A stretch of DNA of 64,000 nt from Novosphingobium sp. (GCA_030697365.1 JAUYQH010000200.1:4670-68669); one strand, 5' to 3'. Positions 11,388-52,522 are shown, counted from the stretch's first letter. Made by a program: numbers and translations. Notes: generated from the sequence alone by a model not told the origin.

Positions 11388-12476
11388 TTACGCCGCCAAC
11401 CGCGTCAGCCGCGCAGCCCATTCGGCAAGCCATGGGGCAAGGCGAGTCAGCGTGACGAGCAGAGGGGCGGTCGCAGGGTCGGTTCCCGCTCCGGCAAGCG
11501 CGCGCGCCAGCCCGATCGGGCGCCCCAGCCGCCCGGCGAACCAGCGCTGCCAATGCGCCGACCCATCCGCGCCGCCCATTTGCCACGCCTGCGCCGCCGA
11601 GATCCCACTGGCGATGGCGATGCCCATGCCCTCCCCGGCGAGCGAGGGGATCACCCCCGCCTGGTCGCCGAGGCGGAACAGCCTGCTGCGGCCCTCGCGC
11701 ACGCGCCAGCCGTAGGGGACGTTGGCGATCGCATCGATCGCCTCAGCTCCCGAGCGATAGGCCAGCCTGTCGGACAAGGCGGGGCATTCCCCGCCCAGCG
11801 CGGCCAGCAGCGCCTCCGGATCGCCCGTCTCGTTCAGCCGCGAGCGGCGGACCGCCAGGCAGACGTTGGCGCTGCCGTCCTCCTGCAAGGCCACCCCGCA
11901 GTAGCCGCGGTCGAACAGGTGCAGCTCGATGGTATCGCTGACCAGCCGCGTCAGCCCCGGCGCGGCGGCGATCCGCACGCGCAGGCCCAGCGTGGGATCG
12001 CTGCCGCGCGCATCTGCTGGCCGCCCCAAACCGCGGACATCGTGCTTGCCGCTGGCGAGGAACAGCGCGGCGGGGCTGAGGTCGGTGCGATCGTCGAGGC
12101 GGACCGTGTCCCCGATCGCGCGAACTGCCACGCCGCGTTCGATCCTCGCTCCGGCCGTCGCCGCCGCGGCGAGTAGGACCGAATCGAGCTTGCGCCGCGA
12201 GACCGAGCGCGCAGGATGGGGCAGCCGTGCTTCGGCATGCCGCTTCCCGGCGAATAGCCGCACCCGCGTGGTCGGCGCGGGGTTGAGCGCGTCGGCCTCG
12301 ACCCCCAGCCGCGCCAGCGTCTCGAGCGTGCGCCAGCTCAGAAACCCGCCGCACAGCGCATCGCCGGTCTCGCGGCTCCGCTCGATCAGCAACGGCCGCT
12401 CGCCCGCGCGGGCCAGCGCAATCGCCGCCGCCGCGCCCGCGGGCCCGCCGCCGACGATCAGCAGCGGGAGGGTCAC
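11388..12476 (-). CDS. FAD-dependent oxidoreductase (geranylgeranyl reductase/hydroxylase-like)
   Basis: Start GTG at 12476 overlapping the upstream stop (GTGA); GGGPAG, LCGGFLS, GDQAGVIPSLAGEGMGIA motifs. Confidence 0.88.
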   Translation of the reverse strand: MTLPLLIVGGGPAGAAAAIALARAGERPLLIERSRETGDALCGGFLSWRTLETLARLGVEADALNPAPTTRVRLFAGKRHAEARLPHPARSVSRRKLDSVLLAAAATAGARIERGVAVRAIGDTVRLDDRTDLSPAALFLASGKHDVRGLGRPADARGSDPTLGLRVRIAAAPGLTRLVSDTIELHLFDRGYCGVALQEDGSANVCLAVRRSRLNETGDPEALLAALGGECPALSDRLAYRSGAEAIDAIANVPYGWRVREGRSRLFRLGDQAGVIPSLAGEGMGIAIASGISAAQAWQMGGADGSAHWQRWFAGRLGRPIGLARALAGAGTDPATAPLLVTLTRLAPWLAEWAARLTRLAA

Positions 12477-13171
12477 GCCTTGAGCTTCTCGACGCAGAGC
12501 CGGAACGGAAACGCGCGGTACACCCGCGCGCCGCTCACCCCCGCCTCGGCGAGGATCGGCGGCCACTCGGCGGGGCGATAGCTGCGCGCGATCGACAATG
12601 TGCCGTCGAGCCGGACGATCCGGTGCCAGCCGAACACGCGCGCCAGCAGCGGGAATCCGGCGTGGGCGAAGGCGTGGCGGTGGAGGTCGTTGACCAGCCA
12701 GCCGACCTGGGCGTGAGTCTCCATGAAGCGCAGAAAATCGACTAACTGCGCGTGCGTCATGTGGTGCGCGACGAGGCTGGAAATCACGAAGTCCCACGAC
12801 TCTCCCGCCAGTTCGGCGTAGTCGCCGGTGACCCAGCGGATCGCCATGCCCGGCGGGGTGTGCGCCCGCGCCGCCAGCTCGCTGCGCGGGTTGAGATCGA
12901 CCCCGGCGAGTTTGATGTCGTGCCCCCGCCGCGCCGCCCAGCGCGCGATGCGGCGAAGCATATCGCCATCGCCGAAGCCCACGTCGAGTAGGCGGAAAGT
13001 GCGCCGCTCGCGATACTTCAAGGCGCGGTCGAGGAAGTTCAAGGTTGGCCGCGCCGCCATCGTCACGCCATTGACCTTGGCCAGATCGCCGACCACCGCG
13101 GCATAAGTCGCAGCGTCGAGATCGGGTGCGTCCATCAGCTCTTCGGCGATGACGCGTTGCTGGAGTGTCAC
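12473..13171 (-). CDS. Class I SAM-dependent methyltransferase-domain protein
   Basis: LLDVGFGDGD motif I, GVDLN, ISSLVAHH, NDLHR; GTGA-coupled to both neighbours. Confidence 0.88.
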   Translation of the reverse strand: MTLQQRVIAEELMDAPDLDAATYAAVVGDLAKVNGVTMAARPTLNFLDRALKYRERRTFRLLDVGFGDGDMLRRIARWAARRGHDIKLAGVDLNPRSELAARAHTPPGMAIRWVTGDYAELAGESWDFVISSLVAHHMTHAQLVDFLRFMETHAQVGWLVNDLHRHAFAHAGFPLLARVFGWHRIVRLDGTLSIARSYRPAEWPPILAEAGVSGARVYRAFPFRLCVEKLKA

Positions 13172-14190
13172 GGCGCCGACCGGAAGCGAAAACCCTCCGC
13201 GGCGAGTCCCGGCCCGAACGCCAGCGCGACCCCGCGCCTCACCGGCGGCCCCTCGATCAACCGCGCGAGAACGAACATCAGTGTCGCCGACGACATGTTG
13301 CCGACCTCCTCCAGCACGCTGCGCGATACGGCCAGCGCATCTTGCGGCAAATCGAGCCCGCGTTCCACCGCGTCGAGGATCGAACGGCCCCCGGCGTGGA
13401 CCGCCCAGCTATCGACCTCGCCCGGATCGACCCCGCCGGTGGCCGCCAGCGCAAAGTCCGGATCGGCCAGCCCTGCCGCGATCCGCCCCGGCACTTCGCC
13501 CGACAGATGCATCGCGAAGCCGCGGTCGGTGATTTCCCAGCGGATCAGCTCGGCGCTATCAGGCAGCGTGGTGGCAAACGGCGTTTCGAGCGCAAAGCCG
13601 GTCGGCTCCGCGGTGACCAGTGCCGCCGCCGCGCCATCGCCGAACTGGAGCATCGCCAGCAGCGGCTCCATCTCGTGCGCCTCCTGCAAATGCAGCGTCG
13701 ACAGCTCGACCGTGACCACCAGCACCCGTGCCGCGGGGTCCGAGCGGACGATATGGCGCGCGCTGCGCAATGCCGCGACCGCGGCGTAGCAGCCCATGAA
13801 GCCTACGAGCAGCCGCTCGACCGAAGGCGCCAGCCCCATCCGCCCGGCGATGATCTGGTCGATCCCGGGGGCGACGAACCCGGTGCAGCTGGCAACCACT
13901 AAATGCGTGATCTCGCCCGGATCGCCCAAGGCATCGATCGCCTGCATCGCGAGATCGGGTGCGGCGGTGGCGTACAGCTCCATCCGCTCGCCGGTGCCGG
14001 GAAGCGGCGAGTTTGCGTAGAACCCACCCGGATCGACCGGGCTGGCGCCGCCGCTGCCCTCCGTCAGGACCGACCAGCGATGCCCGATCCCCGATCGCGC
14101 CGCCATCCGGTCGAACAGCGGGCGCTGGCGTTTGTCGAGCTGGGTGCGGGCCCAGGCGATGAAGGCATGGTGGATATCATGGCCCGGCAC
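13168..14190 (-). CDS. Type III polyketide synthase (chalcone/stilbene synthase family)
   Basis: Cys-His-Asn triad in GFMGCYAA, VHAGGRSIL, GNMSSATL; also FGDGAAA and AFGPGL. The frame extends upstream (CYLNSVGTAVP) with no ATG/GTG/TTG, so the true start is uncertain (see findings). Confidence 0.93.
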   Translation of the reverse strand: MPGHDIHHAFIAWARTQLDKRQRPLFDRMAARSGIGHRWSVLTEGSGGASPVDPGGFYANSPLPGTGERMELYATAAPDLAMQAIDALGDPGEITHLVVASCTGFVAPGIDQIIAGRMGLAPSVERLLVGFMGCYAAVAALRSARHIVRSDPAARVLVVTVELSTLHLQEAHEMEPLLAMLQFGDGAAAALVTAEPTGFALETPFATTLPDSAELIRWEITDRGFAMHLSGEVPGRIAAGLADPDFALAATGGVDPGEVDSWAVHAGGRSILDAVERGLDLPQDALAVSRSVLEEVGNMSSATLMFVLARLIEGPPVRRGVALAFGPGLAAEGFRFRSAP

Positions 14191-16795: not shown

Positions 16796-17491
<696 letters not shown>

Positions 17492-17578
17492 GTGGCGGTA
17501 CCCCTGTTCCCATAGCCCCGGTAACAAACCGTCAATCCGTCTTGCCGGCCATTAACCACAGGACTTCTGAAGAGAAAA

Positions 17579-17596
17579 GGTTAATTTGCGGTAAAC
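17579..17596. promoter_or_regulatory. Near-consensus CtrA box in the ctrA promoter
   Basis: GGTTAATTTGCGGTAAAC = TTAA-N7-TAAAC (one mismatch to TTAA-N7-TTAAC); extra half-site TTAACC at 17552-17557. Confidence 0.7.
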
Positions 17597-17638
17597 AACG
17601 GGAATCCAACGAGTCGCGGCGGGATTGCCACAGTGGGC

Positions 17639-18634
17639 TCAAGCTGCCGGGACTCCCAACGTCGCCGCGGCCTCGCGCAGTTGCCTGCTGGTCGCGCCGT
17701 CGTTCCTGAAAGCCGCCAGCGCGTCTTGCAGCGCCAGGGCGGCCTTCCGCTGCTCGCCCAACTGCATCCGGCTGCGCATGAGCATGATCCAGCCTTGCGC
17801 ATTGTTCGGGTTGGCCTTGAGCTTGGCCTCGAGTCCGTCGACCATGCCCTGGACCATCTGGTCCTGCGCGCCTTTGGGCAGCGCGCTGGCGGCCTGGATC
17901 TGGTCGCGGGTCGGGCCGGGGATGCCCGCGGTCGCAACGTCCGGGCCGGTTGTGGTGAAGCCATTGGCGGGGGGTGCAGGGCTGGCCGCGGCGAGCCGCG
18001 CGGCGACCTCGATCCCGTTCTTTTTGCCCACCGCCTGGATCACTTCGCGCACGTCGGCCACCCACGGCGCGTCGGCGGGCGAATCCTTGAGCAGCGCGAA
18101 CCATTCGTCGATCGCCGCCTGGTGCCTGCCGTCGAGATCGAGCCGGACCGCGCGGAAGTAACGCGCGCGCGGCTCCTTGGGGTCGAGCGCCAGCGCGGCG
18201 TCGAACGCGGCTGTCGCGTCGGGCGGAACCCCGTCGCCGTCCCTGCTCGCCAGCACCAGCGCCTCGCCCAACATCGAGAAATATTCGGGGTTCTTCGGAT
18301 CGAGCACGGTCGCGCGCTTCATCGCGGTCGCCGCTTCGGCATAACGTTCGGTCTGGTAATACGACCAGCCAAGCATCCGCCAGCCCTCGGCGTCTTGCGG
18401 ATTGGTCTTGAGCCGCGCCTCGAGCTTGGTGATGACCTCATCCACTGATGGCTGTGCGGCTTCGGCAGATGCGGCGGCGGGCGGTGCCTCGCGGTTGCGC
18501 CAGATCGCAATTCCGCCCGCAACGACCGCGATCGCCGCAGCGGCGGCCAGCGCGATCCGCCCACCGCGCGCCGGGCTGCCTGCGGGACTTGGCGTGATTT
18601 CTGACGGTGCGGCGGTGGTCTCGGTTTCGCTCAC
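17639..18634 (-). CDS. TPR protein, CcmI/CycH/NrfG-like cytochrome c maturation factor
   Basis: GTG at 18634 with RBS GAGGAG; one N-terminal TM helix; LEARLKTNPQDAEGWRMLGWSY and LEAKLKANPNNAQGWIMLMRS repeats typical of CcmI/CycH. Confidence 0.75.
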   Translation of the reverse strand: MSETETTAAPSEITPSPAGSPARGGRIALAAAAAIAVVAGGIAIWRNREAPPAAASAEAAQPSVDEVITKLEARLKTNPQDAEGWRMLGWSYYQTERYAEAATAMKRATVLDPKNPEYFSMLGEALVLASRDGDGVPPDATAAFDAALALDPKEPRARYFRAVRLDLDGRHQAAIDEWFALLKDSPADAPWVADVREVIQAVGKKNGIEVAARLAAASPAPPANGFTTTGPDVATAGIPGPTRDQIQAASALPKGAQDQMVQGMVDGLEAKLKANPNNAQGWIMLMRSRMQLGEQRKAALALQDALAAFRNDGATSRQLREAAATLGVPAA

Positions 18635-18849
18635 GGGGGCCCTCCTCAAAGCAGCGCAACAGCCGCGCGTATCGGGTGCGCGCAAGGCACTGGTCAAGCG
18701 CTTCGCGGCAAACGCCGGGCAAGTCGAAAATAGCGGGTGGAAATCGTAGCTTGTTTCGCTAAGGTCGAGTCAATCGGGGGTCGCAGCAGGCAGATACGGG
18801 GCGTGGGCACGATAGTGCCGCGACCTGTTGCGACGGGGGACGTACACCG

Positions 18850-21426
18850 GTGAGCCAGATCTACAAGGTAGCGATCATCGGGTCGGGGCCGGCGGGGATG
18901 AGCGCCGCGAGCCACGCCGCCAAGCTCGGCCTCAACCACGTCCTGCTCGAAAAGACCGACCACCTTTCCGATACGATCTACAAGTATCAGAAGGGCAAGC
19001 ACGTCATGGCGACGCCCAACCAGCTGATCCTGCGAAGCGACCAGGAATTCGACGCAGGCAAGCGCGAGGACATCCTCGGCAAGTGGAATGACCGGACCAA
19101 GGAACTCAGCGTCAACGTCAAGTTCAACGCCGAGGTCAAATCGATCAAGGGCACCGGCGATGCGATTGCCGGATCGATCCAGAAGATGGTCGCGCGCGCC
19201 CGCGACGGCACCACCACCACCACCGAACTACAGCGCATGGCTCCGCCCTACGAACTCACGCTGACCAGTGGCGAGAAGGTAATCGCCGAGAACGTCATCC
19301 TGGCGATCGGCACGCAGGGCAACCCCAACCTGATGCGCTGCCCCGGCGGTGACTTGCCCCACGTGACCTACCAGCTCGACGATCCCTATGTGGTGGTCGA
19401 TCAGCACATCACCGTGATCGGCACCGGCGACGCGGGGATCGAGAACGCGCGCGGGCTGGTTGAGGACGAGGTCCAGGGCAACGTCGTGACGGTGCTCAAC
19501 CGCGCCCAGAAATCGACCAACGTGCGTGAAAGCTTTGCGACCGCGAAGGAACCCAACGCCAAGGCGCTGGTCGATGACGATGCCGCGGGCCGCCTGACGA
19601 TCATGTACGAGACCGAGACCAAGGAGGTCGAACCCGGCTGGATCGTGCTGGCGACGCGCGACGGCGAGGAACGGATCCGCTGCGACCGGATCATCGCGCG
19701 GATCGGCTCGGCCCCGCCGCGCGGGTTCGTCGAGGGCTGCGGGATCGAGTTCGCCAGCCAGGACCGGCTCGCCTTCCCCACGCTGTCGCCGGTGTTCGAA
19801 TCGACCGCGCCGGGGATTTTCGTGATCGGCGCGCTGGCCGGCTATCCGCTGATCAAGCACTGCATGAACCAGGGCTACGACGCGGTCGAGTTCATCAACG
19901 GCAACACCAGCCTGAAACCTGCCGACCAACCGCTGCTCGACGCCAAGTTCGCGGGATTGCCCGGCAATCGCTCGGTCGAGCAATGGCTCGATTTCCTCAA
20001 GAGCAACGTCACCATCCTCGAAGGCATGACCACGCTGCAGCTGCGTGAGTTCATGCTCGATTCGGATATGCGCGCGTACCGCAAGGGCGAGGTAATCTTC
20101 GAAAAGAACGATCCCGGATCCTCGCTGTTCGCGATCGCAGACGGGCTGGTCCACGTCCAGATCGATCCCACCGACAAGTCCAAGATCGTACCGATCGAGA
20201 AGGGTTCGATCTTCGGCGAAGTCGGGCTGATCTCGGGCCGCCGCCGCGGCGCGACGATCGTCGCCGCCGAGGACACCGTCTGCGTCGAGATAAGCCGCAA
20301 CGCCGCGCTCAAGCTGCAGAGCCAGGTGCCGACCGCCAAGAAGGCGATCGAACGCATCTCGACCGAGCGCCAGCTGCTCCAGATGTTCGGCGCGGGGTTG
20401 AACCCGGCGGACATCAAGGAAGTGGTCGACGACGCCAAGATCATGCAGATCAAGGCCGGCGACACGATCCTGCGCGAGGGCGACGACGGCAAGGAAATCT
20501 TCGTGATCCGGGTCGGCTCGATGATCGTGGAGAAGATGGTCGGCGGCAAGCCGGTGTTCCTCAGCTACCTTCCCGCGGGATCCTACGTCGGGGAAATGGC
20601 GCTGATCGCGGGGGGCCAGCGCACCGCCAGCGTGCGCGCCGCGGTCAAATCCGAAGTCATCAAGATCGACGGCGAGAAATTCGAGGCGGTGCTCAGGACC
20701 AAGCCCGCACTGCTCGAACGCGCGCGCAAGGACATGGACTTGCGCCGGCAGACCAACGCGCTGATCGAATCGAAGAAGGATTCCATATCGAGCGTGGTCG
20801 ATCTGTGGTCGGAACAGGCCGAGTTCCTCGTCGCGCAGGGGCTGGGCGAGGCGACCGACGTGCTGCTGATCGACGAAACGCTCTGCGTCGGCTGCGACAA
20901 CTGTGAAAAGGCCTGCGCCGACAGCCATGAAGGGCTGAGCCGGCTCGACCGCGAGGCGGGCAAGACTTTCGCCCATCTCCATGTGCCGACATCGTGCCGC
21001 CACTGCGAACACCCACACTGCATGGCCGATTGCCCGCCCAACGCGATCCACCGCGGCCCCGACGGCGAGGTGTTCATCAACGACACCTGCATCGGCTGCG
21101 GCAATTGCCAGCGCAACTGCCCATATGGCGTGATCCGGATGGACAAGGTCCCGCCCAAGAAGCCTTCGCTGCTCAACTGGCTGTTCTTCGGAAGCGGCCC
21201 CGGCCCGGGCGAACCGCCTTACAAGTGGTCGAAGAAGAACATGAAGTACACTGGCAATCCGGCGATCGACGAATCGCTCGACCGCAAGAAGGCGGTCAAG
21301 TGCGACATGTGCGCGGGGATCGATGGCGGCCCGGCCTGCGTGCGGGCCTGCCCGACCGGCGCAGCGATCCGCATCGCGCCCGACGAGTTCCTGACCGTCG
21401 CCCGACTCGAAGAGGAGAGCGCGTGA
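18850..21426 (+). CDS. FAD/NAD(P) oxidoreductase fused to two cNMP-binding domains and a 4x[4Fe-4S] ferredoxin domain
   Basis: GSGPAG and GTGDAG Rossmann motifs; FGEVGLISGRRRGAT and VGEMALIAGGQRTAS phosphate-binding cassettes; CVGCDNCEKAC, CRHCEHPHCMADCP, CIGCGNCQRNCP, CDMC..ACVRACP. Confidence 0.9.
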   Translation: MSQIYKVAIIGSGPAGMSAASHAAKLGLNHVLLEKTDHLSDTIYKYQKGKHVMATPNQLILRSDQEFDAGKREDILGKWNDRTKELSVNVKFNAEVKSIKGTGDAIAGSIQKMVARARDGTTTTTELQRMAPPYELTLTSGEKVIAENVILAIGTQGNPNLMRCPGGDLPHVTYQLDDPYVVVDQHITVIGTGDAGIENARGLVEDEVQGNVVTVLNRAQKSTNVRESFATAKEPNAKALVDDDAAGRLTIMYETETKEVEPGWIVLATRDGEERIRCDRIIARIGSAPPRGFVEGCGIEFASQDRLAFPTLSPVFESTAPGIFVIGALAGYPLIKHCMNQGYDAVEFINGNTSLKPADQPLLDAKFAGLPGNRSVEQWLDFLKSNVTILEGMTTLQLREFMLDSDMRAYRKGEVIFEKNDPGSSLFAIADGLVHVQIDPTDKSKIVPIEKGSIFGEVGLISGRRRGATIVAAEDTVCVEISRNAALKLQSQVPTAKKAIERISTERQLLQMFGAGLNPADIKEVVDDAKIMQIKAGDTILREGDDGKEIFVIRVGSMIVEKMVGGKPVFLSYLPAGSYVGEMALIAGGQRTASVRAAVKSEVIKIDGEKFEAVLRTKPALLERARKDMDLRRQTNALIESKKDSISSVVDLWSEQAEFLVAQGLGEATDVLLIDETLCVGCDNCEKACADSHEGLSRLDREAGKTFAHLHVPTSCRHCEHPHCMADCPPNAIHRGPDGEVFINDTCIGCGNCQRNCPYGVIRMDKVPPKKPSLLNWLFFGSGPGPGEPPYKWSKKNMKYTGNPAIDESLDRKKAVKCDMCAGIDGGPACVRACPTGAAIRIAPDEFLTVARLEEESA

Positions 21427-22388
21427 TGGCGACGCTTCCCCACACCCCCGACAAGGGTGACTTCGAGACCGCGGCGACGACCAAATCCTCGACCTCGACC
21501 CGCACCCCCAAGACCGCACCGCGGGTCCGCCGCGACAAGGTCACCAGCCACGACAGCTTCCTCAACTACGGCAACGGCCGCTGGTGGAAGATCGCCATCG
21601 TCATCGCGGTCGTTTCGTTCGCGACCTATTTCCTGATCGACGTCGAGCCGCGTCACAACGGCGGATCGTGGTACGGCTATACGATGGGCACGATCGGCTT
21701 TGCGCTGATCCTCTGGCTGACCCTGCTCGGCGTGCGCAAGCGGGCGATGACTCCGGGACGGTGGAGCCTCAAGGCGTGGACCAGCGCGCACGTTTATCTC
21801 GGGCTCAGCCTGATCGTGATCGGCACGCTCCACACCGGGTTCCAGCTGGGCTGGAACGTTCACACGCTGGCGTGGGCGCTGATGATGCTGGTGATCCTGT
21901 CGGGACTGTTCGGGATCTACGTCTACGCCACGCTGCCCAAGGCGCTGTCGGCCAACCGTTACGACGAGGACGGCGCGATCACCGAGAAGGTGATGATCGA
22001 ACAGATGAAGCAGCTCGATCGCCAGATCCACGATGCCGCACAGCCGCTCGACCCCGAAGCCGCGACCATTGTCGAGCGGAGCCTGGGCGAGAACGTCTTC
22101 GCGGGCAGTTTCTGGCAGCGCGCCCGCAACAGCTATCCCGGTGACCTGACCCGGATCGCGATGGGCGAGCTACGCAAGTTGCGCAACTTCCGGCCGCGAA
22201 CCGACGACGATCCGTTCGAGCGGGTCGAAACGCTTCTGTCCAAGAAGGAGGCCCTGCTCGCGAAATTGCGACGGCACCTCCAGCTCAAGTCGTGGCTCCA
22301 AGCCTGGCTCTATATCCACGTCCCTGCAACCTTCGCGCTGATCGCCGCGCTCTCTGCGCACGTGTTCAGCGTGTTCTTCTACTGGTGA
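21426..22388 (+). CDS. Membrane protein with ferric-reductase-like di-heme b ligands
   Basis: ATG overlaps the upstream TGA (TGATG); His pairs at codons 21789/21831 and 22317/22359, each H-X13-H in a hydrophobic helix. Confidence 0.8.
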   Translation: MATLPHTPDKGDFETAATTKSSTSTRTPKTAPRVRRDKVTSHDSFLNYGNGRWWKIAIVIAVVSFATYFLIDVEPRHNGGSWYGYTMGTIGFALILWLTLLGVRKRAMTPGRWSLKAWTSAHVYLGLSLIVIGTLHTGFQLGWNVHTLAWALMMLVILSGLFGIYVYATLPKALSANRYDEDGAITEKVMIEQMKQLDRQIHDAAQPLDPEAATIVERSLGENVFAGSFWQRARNSYPGDLTRIAMGELRKLRNFRPRTDDDPFERVETLLSKKEALLAKLRRHLQLKSWLQAWLYIHVPATFALIAALSAHVFSVFFYW

Positions 22389-22395
22389 GCGGCGC

Positions 22396-24276
22396 ATGAG
22401 CTTTCTTGTCCGCCAGATCGCACTGAAGGCCAGCGGGGACGAGATCGTCCGCGCAAAAAGGGTCGATGGCGACGAAATGAAGATCGGCCGTGACGGCGCT
22501 TGCGGCCTCCACCTGCCCGATCTTGCGGTCGATCCCGAGCACGCGCTGGTCACCCAGCTTGACGAGACCCACATCGAGATCGAATCGCTGCACGGCCAGC
22601 CGTTCGAAGTCGATGGCCAGTCGGTCCAGCGCAAGGAGCTCGACGTCACGCTCGGCTCCGAACTCAAGTTCGGCAGCCACCGGATCAAGCTGGGGCAAGA
22701 TGCGCGCAGCCGCTTTCCGACGTTTACCGTGCGCCGCGAAGCGCCGCTGTCGCACTCCAACTCGGATCCCGACACCAACGAGGCCTATACGCTCAAGGGA
22801 CTGGTCCCGGGCAAGCGGATGAGCGCCTGGGCGTTCGCCGCGATGGTCCTGCTCGCGTTCCTCGCCTGGCCGATCTGGAGCTATGCCAGCTACAGCGACC
22901 TCGCGCTCAAGAAGGACGCTGCGCGGCCGGCGGGCTATCATGGCGATAAGGCGTGGGAATCGGGCAAGCTCAGCCTCGCGCACCAGGGGCTCGAGAACGA
23001 TTGCCAATCGTGCCACGTCGAGCCGTTCGTGGCGGTGCGCGACAACGCCTGCCAGACCTGCCACACCAAGGTCCACGATCACATCAAGGACACCGCGCGG
23101 TTGGTGGCGGCGCGCGGCGAGCCGGGCGGGTTCGCCTCGTTCACACGGGCGGTGGCGACGACCTTCAACAAGCCCGCGGGGCGCTGTGTCGAATGTCACA
23201 CCGAGCACGAGGGCGCGGGTGATATGGCACCCACGGCGCAGAAGTTCTGCACCGATTGCCATGCCGAGATGAAATCGCGCTTGCCCGACACGAAGCTTCC
23301 CGACGCGGCCGACTTCGGCACCTCGCACCCGCAGCTGCGCCCGACGGTGATCGCCGACACCACCGACGCAGCCAAGCCGAAGCTGCGCCAGATCGTCTGG
23401 TCGCAGGACGCCAAGGAATTCAACGGGCTGAAATTCACCCACGCCCAGCACCTCTCGACGGTCAATGGCGTTGCCCAGATGGTCCGCCGCCGCCCCAACG
23501 AGTTCCCCGACCAGGAAGGGCTCGATTGCGAGAACTGCCACCAGACAGATGCCTCAGGCGTGTGGTTCAAGCCGGTGGTGATGGAGGAATCCTGCCAGAC
23601 CTGCCACAGTCTGACCTTCGACAAGATCGGCGGGACCTTCCGCACACTGCGTCACGGTGAGCCCGAGATGGTCGTCGCCGACTTGCGCGGGTTCTTCGCC
23701 GCGGGCGCGCCGACGCGCCCGATCAACCTCGATTCGATGAGCCGCCGGGTTCCGGGCGATCGCGCCGCGGCCGAGACCGCGGGCGATTACGCACGCGCGG
23801 TGCGGTTCTATCCGACCCAGGCCGGCCAGGCGATCCAGATGCTGTTCAACAAGGGCGGCGCCTGCTTCGACTGCCACAACATCACCCGCACCGGCACCGC
23901 GGCGACTGCGGGCTACAACGTCCAGAACGTGGTCCAGACCCAGCGCTACTACCACAAAGGCTGGTTCACCCACGCCAAACACACCAAGTACGAATGCGTC
24001 GATTGCCACGTGAAGGCCCAGAACACCAACGACGCCACCGACCTTCTGGTCCCCGGGCTCGACGGCAAGGGCGGCTGCCGCGATTGCCACGTCGGCGGGA
24101 CCGGGGCCAAGCTGGCTTCGGCCTCGGTCAAGCAACCGGTGGAATCGCAATGCGCGATGTGCCACGACTATCACCTCGACGACAAAGCACCGTGGATGAC
24201 CCGCTTGCCAGCATCCCGGCGCGCCTCTTACGATCGCCGCCGCAACGCGGGTGCGGGGCAGAACGCCTCCAAGTAG
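22396..24276 (+). CDS. Membrane-anchored decaheme cytochrome c with N-terminal FHA-like domain
   Basis: KIGRDGACGLHLPDLAVDPEH FHA-like motif; TM helix AWAFAAMVLLAFLAWPIW; 10 CXXCH motifs (CQSCH, CQTCH, CVECH, CTDCH, CENCH, CQTCH, CFDCH, CVDCH, CRDCH, CAMCH). Confidence 0.92.
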   Translation: MSFLVRQIALKASGDEIVRAKRVDGDEMKIGRDGACGLHLPDLAVDPEHALVTQLDETHIEIESLHGQPFEVDGQSVQRKELDVTLGSELKFGSHRIKLGQDARSRFPTFTVRREAPLSHSNSDPDTNEAYTLKGLVPGKRMSAWAFAAMVLLAFLAWPIWSYASYSDLALKKDAARPAGYHGDKAWESGKLSLAHQGLENDCQSCHVEPFVAVRDNACQTCHTKVHDHIKDTARLVAARGEPGGFASFTRAVATTFNKPAGRCVECHTEHEGAGDMAPTAQKFCTDCHAEMKSRLPDTKLPDAADFGTSHPQLRPTVIADTTDAAKPKLRQIVWSQDAKEFNGLKFTHAQHLSTVNGVAQMVRRRPNEFPDQEGLDCENCHQTDASGVWFKPVVMEESCQTCHSLTFDKIGGTFRTLRHGEPEMVVADLRGFFAAGAPTRPINLDSMSRRVPGDRAAAETAGDYARAVRFYPTQAGQAIQMLFNKGGACFDCHNITRTGTAATAGYNVQNVVQTQRYYHKGWFTHAKHTKYECVDCHVKAQNTNDATDLLVPGLDGKGGCRDCHVGGTGAKLASASVKQPVESQCAMCHDYHLDDKAPWMTRLPASRRASYDRRRNAGAGQNASK

Positions 24277-24286
24277 AAATAATGAA

Positions 24287-25135
24287 ATGCTGGTCGCACA
24301 GATTACCGATATCCACCTTGGCTTCGAGCCGGACACGCCGGGCGAGTTCAATCGCCAGCGGCTGGATCGTGCGCTAGCTGCGCTGACCGCGCTCGATCCG
24401 CTGCCCGATCTGATGCTGGCAACCGGCGACCTCGTCGATCGCGGCGATGTCGACAGTTATCGCCGCCTGCGCGAGGCGTTTGCCGGGCTGCCCTTCCCCG
24501 TCCACTACGCGCTGGGCAACCACGACGTGCGGCGTAACTTTGCGCAAGTCTTCCCCGAGGCCGCCTTGATCGACGGCTTCCTCCAGTATGTGATCGAGAC
24601 CGGCCCGCTGCGGCTGGTCGTGCTCGATACGCTGCAAGAAGGCCGCCACGGCGGCGCGTTCTGCGAACGGCGCGCGCGGTGGCTGCGCGATACGCTCGAC
24701 GCAGCGCCAGAGCGCAATACGCTGATCGTACAGCATCATCCGCCGGTCGAAACGGGCATCGCGTGGATGAACACCGATCCGGCCGAGCCCTGGGTCCACC
24801 GCCTGGCCGATTGCCTGCGCGGTCGTCCGAACGTGGTCGGGCTGGTTTGCGGACATATCCACCGCGCGATCGTCACCCGTTGGGAGGGCGTCACCGTCGC
24901 CACCTGTCCCTCGACCGCGCCACAAGTCGCGCTCGAACTGCTCCCGATCGACCCCGAGCGCCCCGACGGCCGCCCGCTGATCGTCGCCGATCCTCCCGCT
25001 TATGCGCTGCACTGGTGGAACGGGCGCGAACTGATCACCCACTTCGACACCGCCGAAGACCACGAAGTGCTTGCCAGCTATGACGACGACCTCAAGGACA
25101 TGATCGCCAACATGCTGGCGGAACGTCCGGTTTAG
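24287..25135 (+). CDS. CpdA/Icc-like metallophosphoesterase (putative 3',5'-cyclic nucleotide phosphodiesterase)
   Basis: ATG at 24287, 10 nt after the cytochrome stop; QITDIH, TGDL, GNHD, HHPP, GHIHR metal-binding motifs. Confidence 0.85.
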   Translation: MLVAQITDIHLGFEPDTPGEFNRQRLDRALAALTALDPLPDLMLATGDLVDRGDVDSYRRLREAFAGLPFPVHYALGNHDVRRNFAQVFPEAALIDGFLQYVIETGPLRLVVLDTLQEGRHGGAFCERRARWLRDTLDAAPERNTLIVQHHPPVETGIAWMNTDPAEPWVHRLADCLRGRPNVVGLVCGHIHRAIVTRWEGVTVATCPSTAPQVALELLPIDPERPDGRPLIVADPPAYALHWWNGRELITHFDTAEDHEVLASYDDDLKDMIANMLAERPV

Positions 25136-25217
25136 GGGCGCACCTCCGACCTCCATCTCCGCTCGTGTCGAGCAGCCCCGCGCGGCAGCGATCGTCACGA
25201 AACCCGAAGTAACCGCC

Positions 25218-26588
25218 TTACCGCGAACCCCGCCCCGCGCGAGACAGCGCCAGCATTTGCGCCCCGTCGCGATTGTACAGATCGTCGCGGAACACGATCC
25301 GGCCCTCGTCGGGCGCGGCGGTGAGGTAAGTGATGTAGACGGGCACCGGCTGCTCGAGCGGGACCACCTGTTCGACGGCACCCTTCTTGGGCGCGGGCAT
25401 CTTGCCGTATAGCCAGGTGCCCAGCCGCGACGCGTCCTCGAGCCGCACGCAGCCCGAACTGGCGAAGCGCACCTCTTCCTTGAGCAGCGCCTTGTCGGGG
25501 GTATCGTGGAGGTAGATGCCCTGGTCGTTGGGGAAGTTGAACTTCACCTTGCCCATGAAATTGCCCTTGCCTGGCAGCTGGCGAACGCGCAGCTCCCGGG
25601 TTCCCGCCTCCACAGCCTTCCAGTCGATCCGCGCGGGATTGAGGACCTTGGGCTTGTCGGACCAGTCGCTCAGCGCCTGATACCCCTTAGCCTTCAAGTA
25701 GCCGACGCCGTTTTTGTTGACGTTCCACGCGATGCGGCTGCGGACCAGATCGGGCGGCACGTTCCAATAGGGATTGAGCACCGCGTTGCTCAGCAGCCCC
25801 GCCATCATCGGGGTCGGTTCGGATGGCTTGCCGACCACGACCTTCATCGAATCGACGATCTTTCCGTCCTCGAACATATAGAGCCGCGCGCCCGCTGTAT
25901 CGACCAGCACGTAACGCTTGGCCGGGTTCGCGGGGATCGCGCGGGCGCGTTCGAGGTTGAGCTGAACCAGCTCGGTCCCCTCAAGGCCAAGCTCGCGCGC
26001 GGCCAAGGCATCGCGCAGATCGTTGTAGAACGGATGCATCCACGCCATGTTGTCGACATAGCGTTCAAGCGAGGGCGCCGCGGCAGCCGCGGTCAGCGAC
26101 GCGTTGGCGGTGGGCATGATCGGCGCGAGCAGATTCGACTGGTAGGTCATCCCCGCATCGCGTGGTGCGCGGGTGCCCTGGACGTAGGCGGCGAAAGTCC
26201 TTGAAAACGCCAGCTCGGCCTTGGCCAGATCGTCGGCATCCCCCTTGCGCGCGCGTTTGAGATAGCCACGGAGGCGATCGGCCTGAAGCGCCTTGCGGCT
26301 GAGACCGTCGTAATGGGCGGTCGCGATCAGCTGGTAGAGCGCCTCGGCAGCCTGGTTGGGTGCGTCGCCCTCGATCCACAGCGGGCGATAGCCGCGGGTG
26401 ATGTAGAACGCGCGCAAGGTGGCGTCGGTTTTGGTGTTGGCGTCGAGCGCCGCCATTATCTCGGCCGGCGGGAGGTCCGCATGAGCGAGCGACGGCGCCA
26501 GCATCGCTGCTGCCGCCGCCGTGATCGCCAGTCCCGAAAGGCCGGCCGGGCGTTTACGCCGCCCGGCCAGAGATCCCAGTTTGCGCAT
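25218..26588 (-). CDS. L,D-transpeptidase family protein (YcbB/LdtD-like)
   Basis: Signal-like N-terminus; MKVVVGK, NPYWNVPP, RQLPGKGNFMGKVKF, IYLHDTP...SSGCVRL catalytic His/Cys. Confidence 0.9.
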   Translation of the reverse strand: MRKLGSLAGRRKRPAGLSGLAITAAAAAMLAPSLAHADLPPAEIMAALDANTKTDATLRAFYITRGYRPLWIEGDAPNQAAEALYQLIATAHYDGLSRKALQADRLRGYLKRARKGDADDLAKAELAFSRTFAAYVQGTRAPRDAGMTYQSNLLAPIMPTANASLTAAAAAPSLERYVDNMAWMHPFYNDLRDALAARELGLEGTELVQLNLERARAIPANPAKRYVLVDTAGARLYMFEDGKIVDSMKVVVGKPSEPTPMMAGLLSNAVLNPYWNVPPDLVRSRIAWNVNKNGVGYLKAKGYQALSDWSDKPKVLNPARIDWKAVEAGTRELRVRQLPGKGNFMGKVKFNFPNDQGIYLHDTPDKALLKEEVRFASSGCVRLEDASRLGTWLYGKMPAPKKGAVEQVVPLEQPVPVYITYLTAAPDEGRIVFRDDLYNRDGAQMLALSRAGRGSR

Positions 26589-27164
26589 TTAGCCCCGCTC
26601 GCCCGCGCGATACGAAGTGCTCGACACCGGCTGAACCACCGGGCCGCCTTCGTAATACTGGCCTTCACGGGTGTAGCCGTCAGCGCAGCCATCGTTGTTG
26701 CGATCGGTCCAGATCGCGCCGGCAAGCCCACCGACAGCCGCACCGATCAGCGCGCCTTGGAGCGGGTTGATCCCGCCGACCACCGCGCCGAGGCCCGCGC
26801 CGCCGACCGCACCGACACCGGCGCCGGTCGCCGCGCCGCCCAGCACCGAACGGCACTGGTTGGCGGCCGCCGCGTATTGCGGGCGGCCTTCGTAGTACTG
26901 GCCGTTCTGGACGTAGCCGTCGGAATAGCCGTCGTTATCGCGATCGGCCCAGATCGCGCCGCCGATCCCGCCGACCGCCGCGCCGATCACCGCGCCTTCG
27001 ATCGGCGAAAGACCGCCGACCACAGCGCCGACGCCGGCGCCCGCAGCCGCGCCGATCGCCGCACCGGTGCCGGCGCTGGCCAAGGTATCGTCATTGGCGG
27101 TTGAAGCACAGCCACCAAGCGAAAGCGCGGTGGCGCCGAAAAGCATAATGATAGTCTTGTTCAT
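26589..27164 (-). CDS. Lipoprotein with duplicated glycine-zipper + DxDxDG-like module
   Basis: ATG at 27164 with RBS; lipobox LGGC; two copies of GA..GA..G helices followed by W(A/T)DR(D/N)NDG..DGY...GQYYEG. Confidence 0.8.
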   Translation of the reverse strand: MNKTIIMLFGATALSLGGCASTANDDTLASAGTGAAIGAAAGAGVGAVVGGLSPIEGAVIGAAVGGIGGAIWADRDNDGYSDGYVQNGQYYEGRPQYAAAANQCRSVLGGAATGAGVGAVGGAGLGAVVGGINPLQGALIGAAVGGLAGAIWTDRNNDGCADGYTREGQYYEGGPVVQPVSSTSYRAGERG

Positions 27165-27269
27165 GAGGATTCTCCGCAAGTCCCATTTTAGGAGCGCGAG
27201 AGCGGCGAACAATCCGGACATCGAAACCATGGTGCAACCCGGAAGACTCGTGGCCCTCGTGTGGGGTGT

Positions 27270-27295
27270 AACGAGAGTCAGGCCCATTCCGTTCC
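27270..27295 (-). promoter_or_regulatory. EcfG (sigma-T/RpoE2) general-stress promoter for the glycine-zipper lipoprotein
   Basis: Minus strand GGAAC-N17-CGTT, exact consensus, about 105 nt upstream of the ATG. Confidence 0.7.
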
Positions 27296-27338
27296 CCGCC
27301 CGGTTCCACCGCACGCCGCGTGCTAGGCACCCGTCGGC

Positions 27339-50522: not shown

Positions 50523-52334
50523 CTAAGCCTTGGCCAGCGCCGTACTCGTCAGGATTTCGGACAAGGTCCGGTTGCGCTCCACCAGTTTGAGGTTGGTCAG
50601 CTCGAGCTCGCGCACGCGGATGGCCTGGAGGTCGAGGCCGACCTGTTGGGTGGCCCAGCCAAGCACTTCGATCTCGTCGGGGCGGTAATCCTCGCCGGTG
50701 GGCTTGGGGCCGAGCAGGACGAAGCCGGCCAGCGCCGCCTGATGCATCATCGGCAGGGCGAGCGCGGCCTCTATCGACGAACCAAGCTCTGCGGGAACCA
50801 CCGCCCCCTGCTCGGCACGCATTGCCGCCAGCGCCGGCTCGTCGGCGTCGATGGTTGCTCCACTGGCGTCGGCGTAGTGCCCCTCCGCCGTCCGCGCATA
50901 GAGCGCCACATTCGCGCCGCCGGTGAAGCGGGCCAGCTCGGCGGCGAAGTTCCCCGCCAGCGCCTCGGGCTTCTCGACATGCGCCGCCGCGCGCACGAAG
51001 CGCCGCAGCGCTTGCTCGTTGAGCTGCCATTGGTGGAAGAACAATCGCTCGATGGCGTGCTCGACCTTATGATGGATGCGGTTGAACAGCAGGTAGAGGC
51101 TGACCGCGATCCCCGCGCTGATATAGACGCTGCCGCCATACCAGACCTTGGGTATCGCCTGCTTGATCGCCCATTCGATCAGCGCGAAGCTGACCAGCAG
51201 CAACACTCCGATCGCGCCGAACACCAGCGTTCGGTTTACCGCGAAGCCTAGGTCGAACAGCTTGTGGCGGAGGACTGCGTAGGCGAGCAGGCCGGGGGCG
51301 ACCACACCCTGCATTGCCGCATTGAAATAAATCAGACTGGCGCTGCTTTCGCCGCCAACAATCGAACCTGTCTGCATCGAGTCCCACGAATTCAACACGG
51401 CAGCAAACAGATAGGCGGACAAAGCAAAGACAATCAGCGCGATGCGATTGCGCTCCGCTGCTGAGCTAACGCGCCACCCCGCGACCAGATAAGCGATGGC
51501 AACCGCTATGCTGATTGACATTAGCGAGGAGGGGTACCCGGCACCGCCAGCCCAAGTCATATGGTAGGTCAGCCAGTATCTATCCCCGCCGTAGATACTC
51601 AGACTGACGAGACACCAGACGATCCAGATATTGAACAGTCGCCAATGCCATCGCGGCAATGCACCGGCCTGCTGTTCGAACATCCGCATCGCAAATGGAA
51701 TGAGCAACGCCGCAATAACAAAGAAAAGAATCAGCAGCCACCACATCGGCGCCGCCAGCCCGAGATCGGTTGCCCAAGGCGGCTGATTCGACCCGCCACG
51801 ACCGACCCCTGTGAGCGCAGCACCCAGCAACATGGCCGTTTGGTTGCCCCAACCGCGCCACAATATGAAGCAACCGACCAGAATCGAGATGATCACCGCA
51901 AGCAGATTTGCTATGCGCAGGCCATTGCTTCGTGCCTGCTCATGGCCAACAGGCAACGGCTCGACCACAATTTGATGCTCTGATCGAACACCGTCGCGAT
52001 CGAGCGTAAAGTTGATTCTGTCTCCGACCTCAGGCCGAATCTGGTAATAATAGGGGAGGTCGGTCCGCACAAAATCGCCATTGCGGATCCCCGCTTTGGC
52101 GACCGGACCATTGGGGTCGACTTCGACCATTCTGCCAAAGCCCGCTGGCGCTTTCGGATCGGGGATCGCTCTGCCGGAATTCAATGCGATTTCGCCAAGC
52201 AATCCGCTGCGATAGGCTGCCATATCGACCAGTGCCGTCATGCGGTTGCCGATCAGCAGCACCAGCAGCGCGATCAGCAGTACTTGCTGCCAGCGCGGCC
52301 AGCTCAGTTTTTCGGTTTCGGCGCGGCCCGTCAT
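50523..52334 (-). CDS. Membrane sensor-like protein: PDZ-like + multi-TM + GAF-like, no output domain
   Basis: VEVDPNGPVAKAGIRNGD PDZ-like motif; about 8 TM helices; ALALPM..LAGFVLLGPKPTGEDYRPDEIEVL GAF-like end, then a short coiled coil and stop. Confidence 0.75.
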   Translation of the reverse strand: MTGRAETEKLSWPRWQQVLLIALLVLLIGNRMTALVDMAAYRSGLLGEIALNSGRAIPDPKAPAGFGRMVEVDPNGPVAKAGIRNGDFVRTDLPYYYQIRPEVGDRINFTLDRDGVRSEHQIVVEPLPVGHEQARSNGLRIANLLAVIISILVGCFILWRGWGNQTAMLLGAALTGVGRGGSNQPPWATDLGLAAPMWWLLILFFVIAALLIPFAMRMFEQQAGALPRWHWRLFNIWIVWCLVSLSIYGGDRYWLTYHMTWAGGAGYPSSLMSISIAVAIAYLVAGWRVSSAAERNRIALIVFALSAYLFAAVLNSWDSMQTGSIVGGESSASLIYFNAAMQGVVAPGLLAYAVLRHKLFDLGFAVNRTLVFGAIGVLLLVSFALIEWAIKQAIPKVWYGGSVYISAGIAVSLYLLFNRIHHKVEHAIERLFFHQWQLNEQALRRFVRAAAHVEKPEALAGNFAAELARFTGGANVALYARTAEGHYADASGATIDADEPALAAMRAEQGAVVPAELGSSIEAALALPMMHQAALAGFVLLGPKPTGEDYRPDEIEVLGWATQQVGLDLQAIRVRELELTNLKLVERNRTLSEILTSTALAKA

Positions 52335-52440
52335 GCCTTCTCCCGTCTGGAGAGCGGTCGCGACACCGGGTTGCAGAGTGACCCGCCGCCGGGAGTGGTG
52401 TCAATTTGCTTTGGCACCGCTTCGGGCTGGGTCCCGAACG

Positions 52441-52465
52441 GGAACGCATCGCTCAAACCCCCGTT
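52441..52465 (+). promoter_or_regulatory. EcfG (sigma-T/RpoE2) general-stress promoter for the Cdc48-like ATPase
   Basis: Exact GGAAC-N16-CGTT, 57 nt before the ATG at 52523. Confidence 0.78.
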
Positions 52466-52522
52466 TGCATTCCCGGTCGCGCGTTCCTAGCTGTTGCCGG
52501 GACGAAACGGACAGGACGAAGC

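Follow-up and report, generated by a model that had tools for sequence, protein, structure and literature searches.

A putative cyclic-nucleotide-regulated transmembrane electron-transfer module with an FHA-tagged decaheme cytochrome in Novosphingobium and its relatives

Introduction

Two gene clusters described in preprints are, by their architecture, close to the locus reported here, which occupies positions 17,639 to 25,135 of a 64,000-nucleotide stretch of DNA from Novosphingobium sp. (GCA_030697365.1 JAUYQH010000200.1:4670-68669; GC content about 66%). The whole stretch is called the window below. The core of the locus is a set of three adjacent genes (the trio), which encode a flavoprotein with two cyclic nucleoside monophosphate (cNMP)-binding domains and a four-cluster iron-sulfur (FeS) domain, a membrane protein with four invariant histidines, and a decaheme cytochrome with an FHA-fold domain at its N-terminus. 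A phosphodiesterase (PDE) gene follows the trio and a gene for a TPR protein diverges from it. We lean somewhat towards reading the core as a three-subunit transmembrane electron-transfer module, NOX-like but split, that would carry a cNMP/FHA switch.

The first of the two clusters is the ptdABCDEFG operon of the marine Alphaproteobacteria UBA11136, which was proposed to encode a porin-cytochrome complex and has no assigned function (bioRxiv 10.1101/2023.11.21.568154). Its parts include an FAD/NAD(P) oxidoreductase (PtdC), a cNMP and 4Fe-4S protein (PtdE), a ferric-reductase-like transmembrane (TM) protein (PtdF) and a periplasmic decaheme cytochrome (PtdG), together with the pentaheme PtdA, the porin PtdB and the tetraheme PtdD (bioRxiv 10.1101/2023.11.21.568154). 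From the published description, the cNMP-FeS, TM and decaheme components stand in the same order as in the window. Unlike in Ptd, the flavin domain of the window is fused to the cNMP-FeS protein, and the PDE and TPR genes are added. Counterparts of the Ptd pentaheme, porin and tetraheme are absent from the window: the decaheme cytochrome is the only open reading frame (ORF) with CxxCH motifs in the 64 kb, and no further cytochromes occur among the conserved neighbours of 80 Sphingomonadales loci.

The second is the 'NHC' cluster of Ferrigenium straubiae, with a nonaheme cytochrome that has a cytosolic FHA domain and one TM segment, a five-TM protein and a cytosolic [4Fe-4S] protein (bioRxiv 10.64898/2026.01.22.701106). 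The authors called the FHA-multiheme fusion novel, identified no redox motif in the TM protein, and left the function unassigned (bioRxiv 10.64898/2026.01.22.701106). The likeness to the trio is again one of architecture, with nine hemes versus ten and with no PDE or TPR protein reported in NHC. Whereas the TM protein of NHC has no redox motif according to its authors, the membrane protein studied here has four invariant histidines, which argue for two b hemes. The original prediction for the window, of which this study is a follow-up, knew of no experimental characterisation of such a module. None was found in the literature searched, but homologous clusters, as judged by architecture, have already been named in these two preprints. 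Neither of them gives biochemical data, notes the four invariant histidines or the co-variation between FHA and cNMP domains, or describes the five-gene Sphingomonadales form with a PDE.

As functional analogues we consider the NOX/ferric-reductase-domain superfamily and the MsrQ-MsrP system of E. coli (PMC3591440, PMC5676040, PMC12525009). Like these, the module would combine cytoplasmic NAD(P)H and flavin, two stacked bis-His b hemes with a 13-residue histidine spacing, and an acceptor on the outer side. Unlike them, it has the flavin on a separate subunit, four FeS clusters interposed, and as its presumed acceptor a decaheme cytochrome instead of O2, Fe(III) or MsrP. A transmembrane conduit of multiheme cytochrome, cytochrome b and FeS protein is a known general kind. 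The analogous Hmc, Tmc, Qrc and Geobacter CbcL systems, of sulfate and metal reducers, connect the redox pools of periplasm and cytoplasm through a periplasmic cytochrome with several hemes, a membrane-bound cytochrome b and an FeS subunit that is either cytoplasmic or periplasmic; their subunit families differ from those of the module, which has no NrfD- or HdrD-type subunit. The only sequence link to Hmc-type complexes is a weak match of HmcA on the heme domain, at 29 bits against a cut-off of 400. To our knowledge, none of these complexes has a cNMP-domain NAD(P)H flavoprotein or an FHA-tagged cytochrome.

Results

The positions of the genes and domains are given in Table 1. The flavoprotein and membrane-protein genes overlap by a TGATG at 21424-21428 (TGA at 21424-21426, ATG at 21426-21428), the membrane-protein and cytochrome genes are separated by 7 nt (22389-22395), and the cytochrome and PDE genes by 10 nt (24277-24286). 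The TPR gene diverges from the flavoprotein gene across a 152-bp spacer. The original prediction had described these five genes with these junctions, and a series of cofactor motifs for NAD(P)H/FAD, four [4Fe-4S] clusters, two putative b hemes and ten c hemes. From ORF calls and direct reading of the sequence, every gene, junction and motif was found where it had been placed.

We then consider how far the five genes belong together. The Sphingomonadales set consists of the best 80 loci from one-genome-per-species contigs, all of them from this order, with flavoproteins 60-92% identical to that of the window. The flavoprotein is present in all 80, the membrane protein in 78, the cytochrome in 77, the divergent TPR gene in 76 and the PDE, downstream of the cytochrome, in 70. 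Truncated contigs account for most of the absences; the PDE is missing from about three loci that are complete. The median gap is -1 nt between flavoprotein and membrane protein, 8 nt between membrane protein and cytochrome, and 40 nt between cytochrome and PDE. The trio is thus tightly joined and forms a translationally coupled unit. At most 9 of the 80 loci share the flanking genes on the outside (CtrA, TrmB, L,D-transpeptidase), and therefore the five genes travel together within Sphingomonadales independently of their context.

Outside this clade, the picture narrows to three genes. Most distant loci retain the trio, at 28-54% identity overall; so do six of the seven distant full-length loci fetched via representative proteins (28-46% identity) and most full-length loci of a metagenome scan. 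On the other hand, the PDE and TPR genes occur in none of the distant loci examined, and in the metagenome set they are confined to loci whose flavoprotein shares at least 56% identity with that of the window. Since the trio is kept in distant loci and the other two genes are not, the trio is the conserved functional unit. Thus, of the five-gene module first proposed, the trio stands, even at a distance, while the PDE and TPR genes are lineage-specific accessories of the Sphingomonadales clade, outside the core and of uncertain role; as no distant locus has them, the mechanism cannot depend on them.

The flavoprotein itself is widespread. It has 5083 homologues in the 90% collection. At 50% identity there are 632 representative clusters with E<1e-30, of which about 60 are full-length; others are shorter cNMP+FeS forms of about 470-510 aa. 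The module is near-universal in the retrieved Sphingomonadales loci and is also found in Gammaproteobacteria-like and other metagenomic lineages. The proteins of Novosphingobium sp. Gsoil 351 and of related metagenomic contigs are 95-96% identical to the flavoprotein of the window.

A sister module separates the redox chain from the signalling domains. Its flavoprotein, found in many loci and of about 450 aa, has an N-terminal two-cluster Fer4 domain and the same flavin domain, with no cNMP domains. It is accompanied by a membrane-protein homologue in which the four histidines are retained (24/24) and by a cytochrome of 18-27 hemes with only an N-terminal anchor. Of 28 cytochromes of the cNMP type, at least 26 have a cytoplasmic N-terminal extension of FHA size (L101 is an exception), versus none of 13 of the sister type. 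Because the design of FeS-flavoprotein, four-His membrane protein and multiheme cytochrome recurs with and without signalling domains, the core function is probably transmembrane electron transfer; and because the sister module has neither the cNMP domains nor FHA, the cNMP tandem and the FHA domain together are probably an added regulatory layer.

In the flavoprotein, Pfam, NCBIfam and PDB sequence matches give the domain order as a TrxR/YpdA-like NAD(P)H/FAD domain, two cNMP-binding domains and a four-cluster ferredoxin domain. The Pfam families concerned are Pyr_redox_2/3, cNMP_binding in two stretches, and Fer4_11/Fer4_7, so that the two cNMP-binding domains do lie between the flavin and FeS domains as had been predicted. 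The protein is cytoplasmic, as it has neither a signal peptide nor a TM segment.

The flavin domain contains the dinucleotide motifs GSGPAG and GTGDAG, and G11, G13 and G16 as well as G191, G193, D194 and E198 are invariant in 21 diverse homologues, which are 27-64% identical to the window protein. Its nearest solved structures in a PDB sequence search are a chain named TrxR and YpdA; the NCBIfam matches are below cut-off (YpdA 109 vs 340 bits, TrxR 40 vs 343 bits). No redox CxxC is present: the cysteines of residues 1-400 are at 164, 278, 297 and 338, and none is invariant in the 21 homologues. Without a CxxC or a conserved cysteine, the domain is not a disulfide reductase, and a TrxR-type fold without disulfide chemistry therefore makes it resemble the TrxR-type NAD(P)H:ferredoxin reductases. 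The C-terminal domain has 16 cysteines in four groups of the CxxCxxCxxxC type (residues 679-689, 716-728, 747-757 and 818-834), all of them invariant in the same homologues, and its nearest solved relative is HycB of formate hydrogenlyase (7z0s_B, residues 672-846, E 5.9e-20).

The membrane protein has five hydrophobic helices, with a cytoplasmic loop of about 120 residues between TM4 and TM5. His122 and His136 are on TM3 and His298 and His312 are on TM5, with a 13-residue spacing within each pair. All four are invariant in 138 homologues, 86 from the first locus set and 28 and 24 from the metagenome scan. The ferric-reductase-domain (NOX/FRE/MsrQ) superfamily is characterised by a pair of parallel TM helices, each with two histidines spaced 12-13 residues apart, that ligate two stacked b hemes. 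This histidine pattern was found here, although five TM helices are predicted versus six in the core of that superfamily. The protein is thus a putative di-heme cytochrome b, in which His122 and His298 would hold the inner heme and His136 and His312 the outer one. Its match to Ni_hydr_CYTB (PF01292, prokaryotic cytochrome b561) is sub-threshold (27.6 vs 30.1 bits). Among 15 family members, sub-threshold matches were obtained to Ni_hydr_CYTB in 14, DUF4405 in 6 and Ferric_reduct in 3 (best E 1.9e-4). Such matches to three di-heme cytochrome b families, weak but consistent, would count for the b-heme reading. The AF2 model of the protein is of low confidence (pLDDT 65).

Two further features of this protein were recorded. 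His146 (21861-21863), at the periplasmic start of TM4, is invariant in homologues of the cNMP type (86/86 and 28/28) and is found in none of the 24 of the sister type. The N-terminal stretch of about 45 residues (21426-21590) is a Ser/Thr/Pro-rich cytoplasmic tail present in Novosphingobium-like homologues only. We considered this tail as a phospho-target of the FHA domain and rejected it, for it is not conserved beyond close relatives and the FHA domain has no phosphothreonine-binding Ser.

In the cytochrome, the CxxCH motifs are at residues 203, 219, 264, 285, 378, 400, 490, 534, 561 and 586, all C-terminal to the TM anchor, and 78 of 84 homologues also have ten. Cytochrome_C7 and Cytochrom_c3_2 are matched above the Pfam cut-offs, and at least 11 further invariant histidines are available as distal heme ligands. 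A single TM helix with its N-terminus inside would place the heme domain in the periplasm. The multiheme domain has no sequence match in PDB and its AF2 model is poor (pLDDT <50).

The N-terminal domain of the cytochrome was not part of the original prediction. The AF2 model is an all-beta sandwich, with pLDDT 80-94 over about residues 25-115, and in a Foldseek search against PDB all the top 50 matches are FHA domains, with probability 1.00. The Pfam matches to FHA and Yop-YscD_cpl are weak, the best being to the phospho-independent YscD-type domain. Gly31-Arg32 is conserved, and the Ser of the SxxH motif is replaced by Asp (DPEH) and is not Ser across the family. The full set of phosphothreonine-binding residues (Gly-Arg, Ser-x-x-His, Asn) is therefore not found in this domain.

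The cNMP-binding domains give a PF00027 score of 121.8 bits in two stretches, against a cut-off of 27.5. Residues 411-624 align with residues 66-275 (CNB-A/CNB-B) of PKA RI-alpha with E of about 1e-17. Both phosphate-binding cassettes, FGEVGLISGRRRGAT in domain A and GEMALIAGGQRTAS in domain B, are canonical, with the pattern Gly-Glu ... Arg-[Ala/Ser/Thr]-Ala represented by GE..RGAT and GE..RTAS, respectively. In domain A, G456, E457 and R466 are each conserved in 81/81 Sphingomonadales sequences, and in 93, 91 and 71 of 98 distant sequences. In domain B, G581 and R591 are conserved in 81/81 and E582 in 80/81 of the former, and G, E and R in 84, 62 and 66 of 98 of the latter. Since the cassettes are canonical and largely kept, nucleotide binding is likely in most members. 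The RTAS of domain B is presumably compatible with cAMP and cGMP alike.

As for a source of the signal, no Guanylate_cyc domain was found in the approximately 45 ORFs of the window that were scanned, a few short or unscanned ORFs remaining, which agrees with the prediction that the window has no cyclase. The only cyclase near the examined loci, a CHASE2-class III adenylate/guanylate cyclase at L118:3362-5587(+), is about 2.2 kb upstream of the trio. No recurrent PDE was found near the trio in a neighbour-enrichment analysis of 19 distant loci.

The PDE of the window belongs to the Metallophos family and is a class III phosphodiesterase of the CpdA/Rv0805/GpdQ/SpdA kind. Its metal-ligand motifs (D8/H10, D48, N78-H79-D80, H151 and H192, corresponding to DxH, GD, GNH[DE], H and GHxH) are conserved in 71/71 homologues. 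The TPR protein, predicted to be CcmI/NrfG-like, does have a TPR domain of the CcmH/CycH type (PF23914 TPR_CcmH_CycH, 72.4 bits vs a cut-off of 42), which is predicted to be periplasmic, with one TM helix at residues 48-66. It is not a canonical CcmI, however: no CcmI model is among its NCBIfam matches, the best of which is NrfG (45 vs 306 bits), and the single helix stands in place of the N-terminal two-TM module with a cytoplasmic loop of CcmI-1. Its nearest natural structure is NrfG.

Upstream of the flavoprotein gene, a block in the divergent intergenic region contains -35/-10-like elements, TGGAAA ... GCTAAGGTC, followed by GGGGTCGCA. By visual inspection it is kept across the intergenic regions of the Novosphingobium group, and it is a putative promoter/leader of the operon. 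A consensus scan for promoters and terminators gave no more hits than expected by chance, none of them in the intergenic region, and did not detect the block. The 68 TPR-flavoprotein intergenic regions searched contain no FNR/FixK, CRP, CtrA, Fur, Irr or RpoN (sigma-54) motif, and no Rfam family matches within 17400-25400. The gene for the CtrA cell-cycle response regulator (NCBIfam equivalog, 421 bits) adjoins the TPR gene at 16796-17527(-). A functional link between it and the operon was rejected, since only the 9 closest of the 80 loci have CtrA beside the operon and there is no CtrA box upstream.

Several arrangements around distant loci were also recorded. Directly upstream of the flavo-cNMP-FeS gene at L102:2713-7976 and L113:2776-7967 (also in L096 and L108, and at L089:16171-18333) there is a ten-heme LVIVD-repeat protein of about 1270 aa and a c554-like tetraheme protein. 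In L096, L102, L108 and L113 no five-TM homologue was detected nearby, and these loci recall the description of Ptd. Large HbpS-like (PF03928) proteins of 620-750 aa adjoin the trio in 4 of the 19 distant loci and may be a periplasmic partner or a heme-related accessory.

Elsewhere in the window, a type III polyketide synthase gene of the chalcone/stilbene synthase-like kind (13168-14190) lies beside an FAD-binding monooxygenase gene (11388-12797), a putative secondary-metabolite pair at 11388-14190(-). The ORF at 50523-52334(-), of 603 aa, has no Pfam match, is in the most GC-poor 2-kb bin (GC 0.61) and may be foreign or an orphan. The gene at 52406-54841(+) encodes a Cdc48-like double AAA+ ATPase with CDC48_N and adjoins that of a CHASE3-HWE histidine kinase at 54848-56152(-). 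Finally, the gene at 26589-27314(-) encodes a small protein in which a Gly-zipper (YMGG-like) domain is duplicated, next to the L,D-transpeptidase gene at 25218-26588.

Table 1. Positions of the genes, domains and related loci (window coordinates unless a locus is named).
Feature	Position	Strand	Evidence
TPR protein, divergent	17639-18697	-	ORF call
Conserved block, putative promoter/leader of operon	18728-18785	+	divergent intergenic region, by inspection
Flavoprotein, 858 aa	18850-21426	+	ORF call
Flavin/NAD(P)H domain, residues ~5-354	18862-19911	+	Pyr_redox_2 over residues 5-342, also Pyr_redox_3
cNMP-binding domain A, residues ~395-505, cassette FGEVGLISGRRRGAT	20032-20364	+	cNMP_binding match
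cNMP-binding domain B, residues ~520-634, cassette GEMALIAGGQRTAS	20407-20751	+	second cNMP_binding stretch
Four-[4Fe-4S] ferredoxin domain, residues ~672-849, HycB/HydN/NrfC-like	20863-21396	+	Fer4_11/Fer4_7
Membrane protein, 320 aa	21426-22388	+	ORF call
Cytochrome, 626 aa	22396-24276	+	ORF call
FHA-fold domain, predicted cytoplasmic, residues ~19-114	22450-22737	+	AF2 model, Foldseek
Single TM anchor, residues 142-160	22819-22875	+	hydropathy; long helix 138-170 in AF2 model
Ten-heme domain, predicted periplasmic	22981-24177	+	CxxCH motifs
PDE, 282 aa	24287-25135	+	ORF call
Sister module	L127:6581-10435		
Sister module	L143:257-4115		
Sister module	L165:4454-8813		
Sister module, also in L132, L139, L141 and L167			
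HbpS-like protein	L083:15000-16877	-	
HbpS-like protein	L095:13498-15741	+	
HbpS-like protein	L104:15693-17741	+	

Discussion

The continuous electron wire drawn in the original prediction is well supported by the comparative evidence, namely the conserved trio, the invariant cofactor motifs and the topology. The features of the three proteins support a predicted topology in which the flavin and FeS clusters are cytoplasmic, two b hemes are embedded in the membrane and ten c hemes are periplasmic. Beyond the observed gene content, motifs, topology logic, conservation and co-occurrence, we infer the cofactor loading, the subunit contacts, the direction of flow, cNMP binding, gating, the PDE substrate and the role of the TPR protein.

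In the mechanism that we propose, the TrxR-type domain of the flavoprotein would oxidise NAD(P)H in the cytoplasm, and the electrons would pass through the four [4Fe-4S] clusters of that protein's HycB-like C-terminal domain. They would then cross the membrane by way of the two bis-His b hemes of the five-TM subunit, inner and then outer, and the ten-heme c-type wire would deliver them in the periplasm to a periplasmic acceptor. Outward flow is likely because NAD(P)H is the lowest-potential partner and because the membrane potential favours the movement of electrons from the negative side to the positive one. Such flow would dissipate reducing power and proton-motive force and would therefore need a switch, which is a rationale for allosteric control in the donor subunit. 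The PKA-R-like tandem between the flavin and FeS domains could be this switch, probably jointly with the FHA domain of the cytochrome. That domain is without the phosphopeptide-binding Ser and would be a phospho-independent docking module, most likely one that tethers the cytochrome to either the cytoplasmic subunit or the TM4-TM5 loop. In Sphingomonadales, the PDE of the operon may end the signal locally, and the NrfG/CcmI-2-like TPR protein may act as a chaperone of the decaheme apoprotein. Gating of electron flow by cNMP is plausible from the domain order and the cassettes. The tandem differs from a PKA regulatory subunit in being placed between two redox domains, with no kinase-inhibitor output and no DNA-binding output as in CRP.

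A number of observations weigh against this proposal. For the membrane subunit, Foldseek against PDB gave no solved fold at E<=1e-3 with the pLDDT 65 model, neither phmmer nor a profile search of PDB returned a match, and hhalign gave a probability of 0.9% for E. coli MsrQ and no significant result for CybB. In L087 and in L096, L102, L108 and L113 the flavoprotein has no adjacent membrane subunit. When transcript evidence was sought for the locus, the sequence was found only in metagenomic DNA runs, and the sole run that contains it entirely is a groundwater metagenome. For the switch, the Glu or Arg of the domain B cassette is replaced in about one third of the distant sequences. Co-occurrence with cyclases in the gene neighbourhood, which the original prediction had offered as a check, was not borne out, with a cyclase in only 1 of 19 distant loci and none found in the window. 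The PDE, predicted to be CpdA-like, does have the class III metal motifs, but it does not reach the CpdA equivalog level: its best NCBIfam matches are all below their equivalog cut-offs (SpdA, a 2',3'-cNMP PDE, 134 vs 400 bits; CpdA 98.7 vs 225 bits). Its nearest PDB relatives are GpdQ, a promiscuous glycerophosphodiesterase (E 1e-19), and then Rv0805 (E 1e-16). The restriction of the PDE and TPR genes to the Sphingomonadales clade belongs here as well.

We keep the specific form of the switch tentative. It is possible that cAMP or cGMP bound to the tandem, and read out with the FHA domain, opens or closes the path from NAD(P)H to the periplasm, with the Sphingomonadales PDE terminating the signal. 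Against this, the conduit may be constitutive, with cNMP-like domains that bind another ligand or are structural or dimerisation spacers, a PDE engaged in general GpdQ-like scavenging or 2',3'-cNMP turnover, and a TPR protein that is a general cytochrome-maturation factor, the last two lying beside the trio through inherited synteny in Sphingomonadales only. We find this rather doubtful. The lack of a cyclase among the ORFs scanned in the window, the relation of the PDE to GpdQ and to a 2',3'-cNMP PDE model and the absence of PDE and TPR genes from every distant locus all speak for it, as does the spacing of the cytochrome and PDE genes, which is looser than that within the trio and exceeds 100 nt in 10 of 70 loci. 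Bacterial CNB-fold domains can also bind heme, 2-oxoglutarate or nothing. However, both cassettes are canonical and essentially fully conserved in the very clade that carries the PDE, and the PDE and TPR genes stay attached in 70-76 of 80 loci despite reshuffled outer flanks.

A flow in the opposite direction appears improbable. The decaheme cytochrome would then take electrons from periplasmic or outer-membrane donors such as Fe(II) oxidases or reduced cytochromes and relay them via the b hemes, either to the quinone pool or to the cytoplasmic FeS-flavoprotein. The authors of NHC favour inward flow to quinone in their Fe(II) oxidiser, which counts against the outward direction proposed here (bioRxiv 10.64898/2026.01.22.701106), and in several lineages the module adjoins further multiheme or LVIVD-repeat cytochromes. 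On the other hand, such flow would run against the membrane potential, and c-type hemes could reduce NAD(P)+ only in a strongly uphill step, with no coupling subunit to drive it. The conserved dinucleotide motif is of the NAD(P)H type that is typical of donor-side flavoproteins, and most of the carriers found are aerobic heterotrophic Sphingomonadales.

Least probable of all is a redox sensor, in which the heme/FeS chain would report the periplasmic redox state with little net flux and the cNMP and FHA domains would be the signalling input and output: the density of signalling domains (two CNB, FHA and an operon PDE) is unusual and the module is present in strict aerobes with no obvious need for extracellular respiration, but no subunit has a recognised output domain (kinase, DNA-binding or GGDEF), a four-cluster wire with ten hemes is excessive for sensing, and the sister module keeps the same redox chain without the signalling domains.

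Conclusions

Inner-membrane electron routes such as NOX, MsrQ, DsbD, Hmc/Tmc/Qrc and CbcL/CymA are regulated mainly at transcription. If the outward, switched conduit proposed here is true, an allosteric second-messenger switch is placed directly in an electron wire. This would be the first direct cyclic-nucleotide control of a transmembrane electron-transfer chain, and a new use of FHA in bioenergetics. The module has been noticed independently in an alphaproteobacterium of oxygen-deficient zones and in an Fe(II) oxidiser. A ligand-switchable electron conduit as compact as this one would also be on offer for bioelectrochemical engineering. Defining its direction, partner and ligand would explain why strictly aerobic heterotrophs have a periplasmic decaheme cytochrome, and would give a function to many genes that are annotated as 'cyclic nucleotide-binding domain protein' or 'cytochrome c3 family protein'.

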